Shown here piece after piece: positions 26,769-30,010 of a DNA stretch of 32,126 bases. The notes below the pieces were generated by a model that was not told the origin of the DNA, searched no databases, and saw nothing but the letters and a program-made list of their open reading frames with translations. How positions within the stretch are numbered: position 1 is the first letter of the stretch; each line of letters starts with the position of its first letter. The DNA is taken from the NCBI GenBank assembly GCA_015520145.1, contig WAQR01000125.1, positions 1 to 32,126 on the forward strand, given 5' to 3'. This DNA comes from Candidatus Hydrothermarchaeota archaeon (lineage in GTDB: Archaea > Hydrothermarchaeota > Hydrothermarchaeia > Hydrothermarchaeales > WAQR01). The translations under genes were made by a program, and so were the position numbers.

Positions 26769-28232
26769 TTAAATCCCTGGCAGCTTTGGCAGTACCACAT
26801 TAAATATGCTCCCGCCGTCGGGATTGTCCTCAACCCATACATCCCCACGGTGCAGCAGCACACATTTTTTCACGATTGCAAGTCCAAGCCCTGTACCCTT
26901 TACACCGGTATTTTTCACACGTTCAAATCTATCAAATATCTTCTCTTTATCTTCATCCATGATTCCTATACCGTTATCTGCTATAGAGATTTTATATCTG
27001 TCTTTCTCGTCCTTAACATCAATTATTATCTTTGAATTTTCCGGGCTATATTTTATTGCGTTTGAGATAAGATTTACAAACACGGTCTCAATAGACGGAT
27101 TCAAATCCGTTAACTGTTTCCCTTTGGGTTTGAAGATCACTTCGATATCCTTTTCCTTTTGCATGTTCTCGTTGCTAAGAATTGCGTCCTGTATATATTT
27201 GTTTATATCCTCCCTCTCGAACTCGAGTTTATCAATGGTCTGGAGTTTTGCATACATTGATGCGTTTTCAATCATTTCGATTATCCTTTCAGCCTGTCTC
27301 AGGATAAGTTTCAGCCCGTCTGTCACGTCTTCTGGGTCATTGTCCTCTAACATTGTCTCTGTTTTCAGGAAGATAATGCTGGCAGGGTTTAACATATCAT
27401 GGTGCATGATGTCTGTAAAGAGGTCTTTTAACCTGTTTGACTCCTCGAGTTTTTTTGAGTAATTCATTAACGTATCTTCTGCGGTCTTCCTCTTCGTCAC
27501 ATCTTTCACAAAGACAGATATCCCGTCAGTTGTGGGATACACCTCTATATCAAAAAAACCTTTTACATTCTCATTTTCAAATTTGATTTCTGTCAGTGTT
27601 GTCTGTTTTCCTGTCTCAATCGCTTCTTTATATATCTTCCCGATTACCGTCTCCCTGGCATCAGGGAAGACCTCGAATAGATTTTTGCCGATTGCATCCT
27701 CTGCCCTGATCCCTGTTAATTTTTCTGATGCCCTGTTCCAGTAGGTGTAATTCAAATCTCTGTCAAGTGCGAAGAATACGTCTGAAATACTCTCTGTCAG
27801 CTTCCTGTACTTCTCTTCCTCCTCCTGGATGGACTTCTCTGATTTTATCATCTGTGTAATGTCTCTCGATATATGGATGAACCTCTGGATATCTCCATTT
27901 TCGTCTTTTAGAGGGTATACAGAAACTTCAACATAACGTCTATTGCCGTTCTTATCAAGATGTGTATGCAGTCTTGCGCATGGGCTACCGGTCTTCATGA
28001 CCTCTGTTAGAGGACATGGATGGTGCGGCGGGCTGCAGGGTTCATCCAGATGATGGGTGATTCTGTAACATGGGCTGCCTATAACTTCTTTTAACGGCAT
28101 TTTGACAGACTTTATAAGGCTTGTATTTGAATAAATTATTGTGAACTCCTTTGATAGAAGCATTATACTTTCGCTTATCCCTTCTAATATGACACCTGCA
28201 AAGTCTTTAAGAACATCCTTTTTTCCCTGCAT
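26769..28232 (-). CDS. cytoplasmic PAS-PAS sensor histidine kinase
   Basis: 487-aa ORF with two PAS-like segments, an H-box FTDIMHHDMLNP, N-box NLISNAIKY, G1 DNGIGI and G2 GTGLGL. It ends 22 nt upstream of the receiver gene, so a likely HK-RR operon. No TM helices are evident. Confidence 0.9.
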   Translation of the reverse strand: MQGKKDVLKDFAGVILEGISESIMLLSKEFTIIYSNTSLIKSVKMPLKEVIGSPCYRITHHLDEPCSPPHHPCPLTEVMKTGSPCARLHTHLDKNGNRRYVEVSVYPLKDENGDIQRFIHISRDITQMIKSEKSIQEEEEKYRKLTESISDVFFALDRDLNYTYWNRASEKLTGIRAEDAIGKNLFEVFPDARETVIGKIYKEAIETGKQTTLTEIKFENENVKGFFDIEVYPTTDGISVFVKDVTKRKTAEDTLMNYSKKLEESNRLKDLFTDIMHHDMLNPASIIFLKTETMLEDNDPEDVTDGLKLILRQAERIIEMIENASMYAKLQTIDKLEFEREDINKYIQDAILSNENMQKEKDIEVIFKPKGKQLTDLNPSIETVFVNLISNAIKYSPENSKIIIDVKDEKDRYKISIADNGIGIMDEDKEKIFDRFERVKNTGVKGTGLGLAIVKKCVLLHRGDVWVEDNPDGGSIFNVVLPKLPGI

Positions 28233-28346
28233 TTTCCCGTCCCGTAAGTTTAATACAAACTCAAGTTCTAAAGTGATTTTTATTGTATATTTAGTTTATG
28301 GTAAAACTAGTATCTCTAAATGAAATCTGGTAATTCCCACAAGAGG

Positions 28347-28391
28347 CTAAAAGCCGGGAAGACTTCTGGTTAGGCTACACCTGGCTTTTAG
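28347..28391. promoter_or_regulatory. 9-bp perfect inverted repeat separated by 27 bp
   Basis: CTAAAAGCC (28347-28355) and GGCTTTTAG (28383-28391) lie between the divergent HK and acylphosphatase-like promoters. Confidence 0.35.
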
Positions 28392-28433
28392 ACGAACTTA
28401 TGGCCATTTGGAGGATACTGGCAGATGCATAAG

Positions 28434-28442
28434 TTTTAAATA
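28434..28442 (+). promoter_or_regulatory. TATA-box-like element for the acylphosphatase-like gene (leaderless transcript expected)
   Basis: TTTTAAATA is centred about 28 bp upstream of the ATG at 28466. No usable SD spacing is present. Confidence 0.4.
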
Positions 28443-28465
28443 TCACGAATTATGAATCATAGGAT

Positions 28466-29176
28466 ATGCCCAAGTACAGAGTAACCATAACCGGCAGCAG
28501 GGTCCACAACGTTGCATATCGCCCGTTTCTCCTGTCGGTTGCCGAAGGATTTGAAATTGACCGATTCTTTGCTAAAAATATCCGGAAAGGAAATACAGGG
28601 ATCGTGGAGGCGTTAATAGATGGAGATGAAGATAAAATTGAGAGATTTAAAGAGTATATCATGGAAAATTTCCCTGAAAACGCCTCTGTCGATGATATAG
28701 CCTTTTCAGATTATGATGGTCATGTAATGAGCGTGGAATCCTTTTACAGATACCTGACTGCAAGTCAGCTCTCGAAAATTGCAGGCACAGGGGTATCTCT
28801 GCTAAAGATAACTGAAGGGATATCAAAAAAGCAGGACATGATGCTCGAGAAACAGGACATGATGCTCGAGAAGCAGGACAGCATGTTAGAGAAGCAGGAC
28901 ATGATGCTCGAGAAACAAGACATGATGTTAGAGAAACAGGACAAGATGCTCGAGAAACAGGACAAGATGTTAGAGAAGCAGGACAGCATGTTAGAGAAGC
29001 AGGATTCCCTTAAAGATGTTGTGGAGCGCGGTTTCAGGGAGCTAAAGGAGGAGCACATCAAGACGAGGGAGATGTCAATGGAGATATTCCGGTCAGAAGT
29101 TCAGGTGCTAAGGGAGGAGATCGATTCCCTGCGTTCGAGCGTTGAAGAGATAAGGAAGAAGGTCGGGATAGCTTAA
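28466..29176 (+). CDS. acylphosphatase-like domain protein with a heptad (KQDxMLE) tandem-repeat region and a C-terminal helical tail
   Basis: 236-aa ORF. The N-terminus YRVTITGSRVHNVAYRPF...AKN...G.VEALIDGDEDKIERFKEYI parallels the acylphosphatase/HypF-N pattern V.G.VQGV.FR...N...G.V. Residues from about 122 to 180 are eight to nine 7-aa repeats. Confidence 0.6.
   Translation: MPKYRVTITGSRVHNVAYRPFLLSVAEGFEIDRFFAKNIRKGNTGIVEALIDGDEDKIERFKEYIMENFPENASVDDIAFSDYDGHVMSVESFYRYLTASQLSKIAGTGVSLLKITEGISKKQDMMLEKQDMMLEKQDSMLEKQDMMLEKQDMMLEKQDKMLEKQDKMLEKQDSMLEKQDSLKDVVERGFRELKEEHIKTREMSMEIFRSEVQVLREEIDSLRSSVEEIRKKVGIA
28829..29005 (+). repeat. in-frame 21-nt tandem repeat, 8 full copies plus a partial ninth
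   Basis: Unit boundaries start at 28829, 28850, 28871, 28892, 28913, 28934, 28955 and 28976 (AAR CAR GAC NNN ATG YTN GAG). The encoded array is KQD(M/S/K)MLE x8, then KQDSL. Confidence 0.95.
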
Positions 29177-29287
29177 TTGTAATTGAGCTGGAGGTGGAGG
29201 CATGTCTGCCGGACATGTCCGAGAAAGTTATTTAAGCATAAATGGATACAATGAAGGCATTAGATAAAATCTGACCAGGTAGATTAG

Positions 29288-30010
29288 ATGCCTACAACCG
29301 AGCCTCCAGATGACGAAAAACGGTCCCTGGAAGAACACCTAGAAGAGTTACTCAAACGCCTTTTGATAGTTGTTATCCAGCTTGTTATACTCACTCTACT
29401 ATTCTTCCCGGTAAGTGGAGAAGTAATAAAATTTATAAAATACGACCTCCTTCCACAGGATATTGATTTGATTGTACTAAATCCGCTCGAGTTTATATAT
29501 ATGAGATTCCAGATATCGATAGTATTTGCCCTGATATTCACGACACCAACGATAATCTTCGAATCATATCGTTTCATGAAACCCGGACTGTTCCCAAGTG
29601 AGAGGAACCTCTTTTTAAAGGTCGTTCCAGCATCATTTTTACTTTTTGTTGTTGGAGGGATCTTTTCTTACAAAATCCTAGTCCCTATCTCACTCGAATC
29701 CCTTATAGAATACTCAAAAAATGCTGTTGTCCCTGTACTTACATTGACCAGGTTTATATCCTTTGTATCATTCATGCTCTTGAGTCTTGGTCTCATTTTC
29801 CAGTTCCCCCTGGTAATCTCATTTCTCGTAAAGAGCGGGCTTATAAAGGTCAGCGACCTTAAAGAAAAGAGAAAGTTAGTATATCTTACAATGGTGGCTT
29901 TTAGTATGGTAATATCTCCTGAGAGTACATTTGTAACCCCGTTTCTAATAGCCTTGAGTATGATCGCTGTCTATGAAATGAGCCTCGTTTTTGCTAAACA
30001 TTTCTTATAA
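29288..30010 (+). CDS. tatC: twin-arginine translocase subunit TatC
   Basis: 240-aa ORF. LEEHLEELLKRL at the N-terminus is followed by six TM segments and F..PGL..(S/K)ER (FMKPGLFPSERN). No tatA is evident next to it. Confidence 0.85.
   Translation: MPTTEPPDDEKRSLEEHLEELLKRLLIVVIQLVILTLLFFPVSGEVIKFIKYDLLPQDIDLIVLNPLEFIYMRFQISIVFALIFTTPTIIFESYRFMKPGLFPSERNLFLKVVPASFLLFVVGGIFSYKILVPISLESLIEYSKNAVVPVLTLTRFISFVSFMLLSLGLIFQFPLVISFLVKSGLIKVSDLKEKRKLVYLTMVAFSMVISPESTFVTPFLIALSMIAVYEMSLVFAKHFL

Follow-up and report, generated by a model that had tools for sequence, protein, structure and literature searches.

A heptad-repeat stalk of stepwise variable length behind an acylphosphatase-like head in a family of archaeal proteins

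We analysed a 32,126-nucleotide (nt) stretch of DNA from a Candidatus Hydrothermarchaeota archaeon (contig WAQR01000125.1 of assembly GCA_015520145.1; the whole stretch is called the window below), in which one gene encodes a 236-amino-acid (aa) protein with an N-terminal acylphosphatase-like head followed by an array of KQDxMLE heptads, itself specified by an in-frame tandem repeat of 21 nt. The protein belongs to a large, mostly archaeal family in which such heads are carried on heptad-repeat helices whose length changes in whole units. We think it rather probable that the helix is a self-associating coiled-coil stalk carrying an acylphosphatase-type head, with a length that evolves through the 21-nt DNA repeat. 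A known enzyme fold would thus be joined to an undescribed, length-variable coiled-coil architecture that was already visible in the databases, and its members, a widespread and unstudied archaeal family, are best named stalked acylphosphatase-like proteins.

The repeat array, the head and the long helix

The gene and the parts of its product, in window coordinates, are the following.

28466-29176, forward strand: gene encoding P0001, the stalked acylphosphatase-like protein of 236 aa, with its stop codon, from the open reading frame (ORF) list and its translation
28475-28723, forward strand: acylphosphatase-like head, beta-alpha-beta-beta-alpha-beta without the fifth strand (residues 4-86), from PF00708, AlphaFold2 and Foldseek
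28733-28828, forward strand: neck and start of the long helix, with the motif YRYLTAxQLSKIATYGG (residues 90-121), AlphaFold2 predicted local distance difference test (pLDDT) score of at least 91
28829-29005, forward strand: KQDxMLE heptad array, eight full units followed by part of a degenerate ninth (residues 122-180; helix length about 8.8 nm)
29006-29173, forward strand: C-terminal tail with a/d heptads at about residues 198-233 and a conserved K-K-V-G-I-A end (residues 181-236), from the register table and AlphaFold2

Tandem Repeats Finder calls the array at 28829-29004 with a period of 21, 8.2 copies, 85% matches and no indels (score 213; periods of 42 and 63 score 247). Compared with itself at a lag of 21 nt, the array matches at 132 of 155 positions, against a maximum of 66 both in 400 shuffles and elsewhere in the window. 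Read in frame, the eight full units are KQDMMLE, KQDMMLE, KQDSMLE, KQDMMLE, KQDMMLE, KQDKMLE, KQDKMLE and KQDSMLE, and the degenerate ninth begins KQDSLKD. Pairwise comparison of the full units yields 39 synonymous codon differences, located at codons 1, 2 and 6 (AAG/AAA, CAG/CAA and CTC/TTA), and 20 non-synonymous ones, every one of them at codon 4. An earlier note, written from the letters alone, had described eight consecutive units and a partial ninth that differ mostly by synonymous changes and vary only in the fourth residue, and all of this agrees with what we found. It had also attributed the pattern to selection on the peptide and not just to recent slippage, a claim strengthened by the confinement of non-synonymous differences to residue 4 and by the presence of the same heptad across archaeal phyla. 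A 98-aa antisense ORF (28765-29061, reverse strand), built of MSCFSSI-type repeats, mirrors the array and was rejected as a gene.

The head, supposed in the same note to have an acylphosphatase or HypF-N-like fold, is indeed recognized as such by profile and by predicted structure. PF00708 scores 36.1 bits on the whole protein against a cut-off of 22.5 (residues 4-85, profile positions 1-76 of 85), 37.8 bits on residues 1-120 and 37.7 bits in the genome search; no other Pfam domain was found in the 236-aa protein, and the NCBIfam acylphosphatase equivalog models, at about 15-26 bits against cut-offs of 89-110, all remain far below threshold. In the AlphaFold2 model, computed for a single chain from a 50-sequence alignment (mean pLDDT 94.8, about 97-98 in the head), the head consists of strands at residues 3-10, 33-41, 44-52 and 77-82 and helices at 18-28 and 55-67. 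Foldseek aligns it with the acylphosphatases 3br8, 1w2i and 3tnv (target-normalised TM-score 0.77-0.79, root-mean-square deviation 1.8-2.0 Å), the best match being the N-terminal domain of HypF (3vti, E 1.2e-5). Residues G10, R19, N38 and P70 are invariant among 50 family sequences. R19 and N38 represent the catalytic pair Arg23 and Asn41, since they correspond to R23 and N41 of the family member P0031 and align to the Arg and Asn of the HypF N-terminal domain in 4g9i. With the catalytic Arg and Asn kept, the head is predicted from its sequence to bind, probably, an acyl phosphate, which it may also hydrolyse.

Behind the head, the model contains one unbroken helix from residue 90 to residue 233, about 144 residues and 21 nm long, which runs through the neck (Q101 and K104 of which are at least 90% conserved), the array and most of the tail. 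The order of the heptad on a helical wheel is K1, M5, Q2, L6, D3, E7, x4, and the 7-residue-periodic amphipathic helix proposed in the earlier note is therefore borne out by both model and wheel. The same note took the adjacency of M and L as evidence against a coiled coil, a view that is not supported: M5, Q2 and L6 form a continuous seam of the g-a-d type on the wheel, which makes a coiled coil the likelier reading. The array itself lacks the canonical a/d pattern and has Gln at one core position of this seam; across the family, seam position 2 is either Q or M, and the solvent-facing residue 4 is the sole free position. In the tail, hydrophobic residues fall where the residue number modulo 7 equals 2 or 5, with regular 3-4 spacing, and canonical a/d heptads are present at 198-233. 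The array is composed of 32% E/K/R, 34% hydrophobic, 47% charged and 20% Met residues, and opposite charges pair at i/i+3 or i/i+4 only four times in its 59 residues (0.07 per residue). No solved structure resembling the stalk by sequence was found.

P0031, which has a canonical head and is the most divergent array-bearing member, was modelled as well. Its AlphaFold2 model shows a five-stranded acylphosphatase (fifth strand at 88-94), a low-confidence linker and a 194-residue helix (110-303). The combination of a head with one long helix is thus general, the missing fifth strand being specific to the type of head found in the window.

The family, its stalks and their copy number

A word-indexed search returned 1,238 homologues at E <= 1e-3, mostly archaeal; those listed are nearly all 180-310 aa long and, where named at all, are labelled only "acylphosphatase". 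A PF28019 label is given for two homologues in the database listing. The earlier note had not recognized the architecture as a described one: no mention of the motif or the architecture was found in the literature searched, yet the architecture is abundant in the databases under that single enzyme label. Read from the best 120 of the 1,238 homologues, the common plan comprises the head, a conserved neck, a run of xMLEKQD, often modules of the ETIxxIKEExxKTRE type, and a C-terminal coiled-coil tail; an ending of the form [KR]x0-3-G-[AVILM]-x0-3 closes 101 of these 120 proteins. The window protein has all that defines the family, namely the head, the neck, the heptad-repeat helix and the coiled-coil tail ending in K..G-hydrophobic, within a length of about 190-300 aa. 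Weak apolipoprotein-like Pfam matches occur in the tails of some members. Named loci place carriers in Nitrososphaeria (including Caldarchaeum), Brockarchaeota, Methanomethylicia, Methanodesulfokora, Hydrothermarchaeota and Archaeoglobales, as well as in Methanotrichaceae, Methanoperedens, Syntrophoarchaeum, ANME-1, Methanospirillum and Micrarchaeota. MAGs (metagenome-assembled genomes) with members of the family include some from the Archaeoglobus/Geoglobus and Methanothrix lineages.

The heptad is strongly conserved throughout. Pooled over 866 units, it reads K (97%), Q (86%) or M (13%), D (98%), a free residue, M (92%), L (90%) or I (8%), and E (67%) or G (15%), percentages that are somewhat inflated because units were admitted on four or more consensus matches. 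KQDxMLE is by far the commonest stalk unit in searches seeded with the window protein, a sample that is biased by this ascertainment. When the stalk alone was searched with phmmer against 1.84 billion representatives, 336 matches were obtained, among which true KQDxML arrays were seen only behind acylphosphatase heads; in all ten such matches that were tested, PF00708 was the top Pfam match (above cut-off in nine; two proteins were N-terminally truncated). The stalk was also sought on other heads, and the long matches of 500-2,800 aa that came up were rejected as unrelated low-complexity heptad repeats. Separately, the phage protein family phrog_30105 (unknown function, 307 positions) matches residues 110-182 (28795-29011) at E 2.6e-8, which is probably a similarity in heptad composition.

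The earlier note had proposed a survey of repeat copy number among homologues, and it revealed a repeat that is kept, in runs of 1-19 units (median 7.5), with protein lengths stepping by seven residues. In 79 protein pairs the heads share at least 93% identity; the lengths differ by 7, 14, 21, 28 or 35 residues in 51 of these pairs and are equal in 24, and only four pairs differ otherwise, some of them through visible truncation. Residue 4 behaves differently within and between genes: its identity probability is 0.35 within genes versus 0.15 between them (entropy 1.49 versus 3.08 bits), and individual arrays carry all S, all Q, nearly all A, or alternating K and V at this position. Such uniformity within genes combined with variety between them indicates that the units are amplified and homogenised locally, while the six other positions are held by selection family-wide.

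Relatives from the same order suggest where the array comes from. One MLxKQD unit or more, amplified or not, stands at the beginning of most of their intact stalks; copies range from one or two up to the eleven or more encoded by the gene of Ca. Hydrothermarchaeum profundi JdFR-18, so that the array looks like an amplified conserved seed heptad. A word-indexed search with the head alone returned just two other proteins. Behind the two heads closest to that of the window (73% and 67% identical), the KQD units number only two or three and give way to different modules, which implies that stalks turn over faster than heads. The modules that replace or extend the array come in units of 7, 11, 14 or 21 residues, among them KEDTSRI, GEKVDxV, GVREDVK and ETIxxIKEExxKTRE, a diversity typical of coiled-coil rods. 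One relative (L080, G026:C10:27100-29000) has four copies of a 21-residue super-repeat, each made up of an MLxKQD unit and ETIxAIKSVKEDTxA.

The same modularity is seen within the source genome (1.9 Mb in 284 contigs, 88.9% complete), which encodes about seven such paralogues: six stalked genes of the acylphosphatase type exceed the Pfam cut-off, and fragments occur besides. Its stalked paralogues score 31-40 bits, whereas its one canonical stand-alone acylphosphatase (contig C6:6586-6834, reverse strand) scores 94 bits over profile positions 2-84 of 85. Paralogues on contigs C16, C93 and C135 share the head and the neck, and their stalk heptads are GVREDVK, GEKVDxV and KEDTSRI, respectively; the stalk is, therefore, modular within a single genome. 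Stalked-type matches with E of about 1e-20 or less are present in at least 12 of the 31 same-order genomes, frequently more than one per genome and frequently in tandem; most of the other matches are HypF N-terminal domains or acylphosphatase ORFs of about 95 aa. McrA was not found in the 88.9%-complete source genome.

The copy number in the window was judged from a second MAG and from the length of the internal repeats. A contig of the second MAG (GCA_026997335.1) is 99.2% identical over 4.8 kb, with the same gene order, a 236-aa protein and the same array length. Its gene has nine base differences, five of which lie within units 1-3 and swap codons that other units already use. The longest exact repeat within the array is 32 nt, and the order of the units is, therefore, resolved by any assembler with k >= 33 or by any 100-nt read. 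Some caution comes from other stalked paralogues of the source MAG, which sit at contig ends: the 2,166-bp contig C149 carries two in tandem, one of them running off the contig end within its own KQDxMLE array, and contigs C92 and C135 begin or end inside stalked paralogues. Arrays of this family, thus, do break assemblies.

How the stalk may work

Eight and a half heptads, encoded by the 21-nt repeat, make up the middle of one helix of about 144 residues behind the head. In such a helix, M5, Q2 and L6 would lie on one face, flanked by K1 on one side and by D3 and E7 on the other, with residue 4 pointing away. This seam would allow the helices to self-associate in a parallel coiled-coil bundle, probably of three or four strands; a widened interface of the g-a-d type favours three- or four-helix bundles. 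Parallel packing would match K1 of one helix with D3 or E7 of the next, and this orientation is favoured because antiparallel packing would set like charges against each other. The tail, through its canonical a/d heptads, would serve to nucleate the bundle or to lock it. The assembly might, thus, resemble a lollipop or a bouquet, with several heads at one end and the conserved K..G-hydrophobic terminus, perhaps docked to something, at the other. With every heptad the helix grows by about 1.05 nm and two turns, so that only whole-unit changes keep the seam in register. A repeat of 21 nt would deliver exactly such changes through slippage or unequal recombination, making stalk length an evolvable variable.

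Several observations weigh against this reading. A plain structural rod would not require six out of seven positions to be conserved so strongly across phyla, which hints at a specific partner or chemistry, and none of the genes around the 44 loci examined is conserved as a neighbour. The structural model is of a single chain. The seam of the array (residue number modulo 7 of 0, 4 and 1) and the a/d seam of the tail (2 and 5) do not share a register, so that the helix would need a stutter or kink near residues 181-197 (around G189). A coiled coil would also be weakened by the Gln that every heptad places mid-seam and by the Gly found at position 7 in 15% of the family units. As for the head, its phosphate loop, I-T-G-S-R-V-H-N-V-A-Y-R, has one extra residue and reads VHNVAYR in place of VQGVxFR, so that Q-G of the signature V-x-G-x-V-Q-G-V-x-F-R is replaced by H-N, and the fifth beta-strand is absent, strand 77-82 passing directly into the helix that starts at residue 90; with the loop altered and the strand missing, catalysis is not assured. 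Family heads grade from fully canonical, with Q-G (VQGV) in only 12 of 164 array-bearing proteins, to derived, most having H-D, Q-D, H-E or H-N. Asn and Asp are the usual replacements of Gly at left-handed backbone positions, and the loop may keep its shape despite the substitution.

A more far-reaching version, which we regard as speculative and on the whole unlikely, would see here an unrecognised archaeal system, in which catalytically competent heads sit on length-tunable coiled-coil stalks anchored by their C-terminal end. These would be tethered phosphatases or sensors for acyl phosphates, such as acetyl or carbamoyl phosphate, or for phospho-aspartyl proteins such as response regulators, and the stalk would be a new type of coiled coil with a Gln ladder, the near-invariance of which reflects a specific assembly or ligand.

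An unlikely rival is that the heptad serves as a binding surface, where an M/Q/L stripe recurring every 1.05 nm docks a periodic partner (a filament, a membrane, a lipid or polymer surface, or a metal bound through Met), or acts as a redox-sensitive, Met-rich element. The cross-phylum conservation beyond the needs of a rod, the Met content of the array, the MLxKQD unit at the start of most intact same-order stalks, amplified or not, and the apolipoprotein-like matches in some tails all fit it. Against it stand the lack of a conserved partner gene, the absence of any evident signal peptide or membrane segment in the translated protein, and the acidic D3 beside the hydrophobic stripe, which is unfavourable for anionic membranes. 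Furthermore, paralogues use quite different heptads at the same place, which speaks for a generic structural role.

The earlier note had preferred an amphipathic or single-alpha-helix (SAH) spacer. An SAH, or another monomeric rigid rod, would only set the distance between head and tail, without contacts between helices. The single straight, isolated helix of the AlphaFold2 model and the 47% of charged residues would suit it, but a content of only 32% E/K/R against 34% hydrophobic residues, with 0.07 charge pairs per residue, and an M and L stripe that is 90-92% conserved on one face make this option improbable. The least probable explanation is that the array is a neutral low-complexity slippage expansion, or partly an assembly artefact, in an ordinary acylphosphatase paralogue: copy number does vary between near-identical alleles, units are homogenised within genes and contigs of this MAG do break inside paralogous arrays, but many archaeal lineages retain the heptad (K, D, M and L at 90-98%), the unit differences are synonymous except at residue 4, length differences between near-identical heads come in whole heptads (51 of 79 pairs, with four otherwise), a second MAG has an array of identical length, and the longest exact repeat inside the window's array is only 32 nt.

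Acylphosphatases are among the best-studied small folds, and their physiological role is still unclear; the family spans many lineages of archaea, in which a genome frequently holds several paralogues, and has been hidden under the bare label "acylphosphatase". Were the heads active, it would offer a natural case of an enzyme held at a set distance from its anchor, and it might show what acylphosphatases act on in cells. The stalk, with a heptad that is six-sevenths invariant from Nitrososphaeria to Archaeoglobales and has Gln in the seam, is an unusual and easily testable candidate for a coiled-coil sequence, and the in-frame DNA repeat behind it would act as a length dial, set in stalk steps of about 1 nm, under purifying selection on the peptide.

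Genomic setting and comparison with known systems

The ATG of the gene is the first possible start downstream of an in-frame stop, and homologues begin alike, with MPKxKVTITG. One further element was read from the sequence upstream.

28434-28443, forward strand: TATA-like box TTTTAAATAT, some 27 nt before the ATG

By the usual archaeal spacing between TATA box and start, this box is a probable, putative promoter of a leaderless or near-leaderless transcript. Downstream, a short inverted repeat (29201-29217, 6-bp arms and a 5-nt loop) begins 25 nt past the stop codon and is followed by an AT-rich, TATA-like stretch before tatC, which suggests that the stalked gene and tatC are separate transcription units. 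The neighbourhood given in the earlier note, a divergent PAS histidine kinase and receiver protein on one side and tatC on the other, is correct for the window, but the arrangement is not conserved in relatives. A histidine kinase or receiver neighbour recurs in only 3 of 44 loci. When all ORFs within 5 kb of these loci were clustered, no conserved operon partner was found, the best neighbour cluster being present in only four; recurring neighbours include TnpB, PIN, nucleotidyltransferase, AAA ATPases, CBS, Fae-Hps and GatE. Rfam gave no match in 28200-29400, and a PADLOC scan for defence systems gave only noise. Three stretches of viral contigs matched the search pattern, none encoding a relative, and tblastn against 50,697 phage records produced no match to the stalked protein.

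Compared with stand-alone acylphosphatases (PF00708, EC 3.6.1.7; e.g. 3br8 of B. subtilis, 1w2i of Pyrococcus horikoshii and 2bjd of Sulfolobus solfataricus), the window protein has the same ferredoxin-like core and keeps the catalytic Arg and Asn. However, the stand-alone enzymes are monomers of about 90 aa with five strands, whereas the window protein lacks the fifth strand and has a 144-residue helix in its place; likewise, their VQGVxFR loop contrasts with VHNVAYR and its one inserted residue. The N-terminal domain of HypF, the carbamoyltransferase of [NiFe]-hydrogenase maturation (3vti, 3vth and 4g9i), has a similar fold with aligned Arg and Asn, and provides a precedent for an acylphosphatase domain that works as part of a larger protein. 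HypF, however, is about 750-775 aa long and has zinc-finger, YrdC-like and Kae1-like domains, none of which is present in the 236 aa of the window protein, and with a TIGR00143 score of 15.2 bits against a cut-off of 466, identity with HypF was rejected.

As for the stalk, SAH domains, such as the lever extensions of myosin-10 and myosin-6, consist mostly of E/K/R, are densely bridged by i/i+4 salt bridges and lack a hydrophobic seam. They resemble the window protein in forming a long, isolated helix (predicted in our case) and a spacer of defined length, but the array differs from them in composition, in charge pairs and in its conserved M/L stripe. Coiled coils that are widened (of the g-a-d type) or have a polar core are known from three- and four-helix bundles and from engineered Gln-layer trimers of the GCN4-pIQI type. 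They share with the array the heptad period, a single seam made of a hydrophobic pair and the residue four positions further along, charged flanks that could pair in parallel helices and a free solvent position; the array differs from them in having Gln in the seam at every heptad and in the fixation of nearly all of its positions across phyla.

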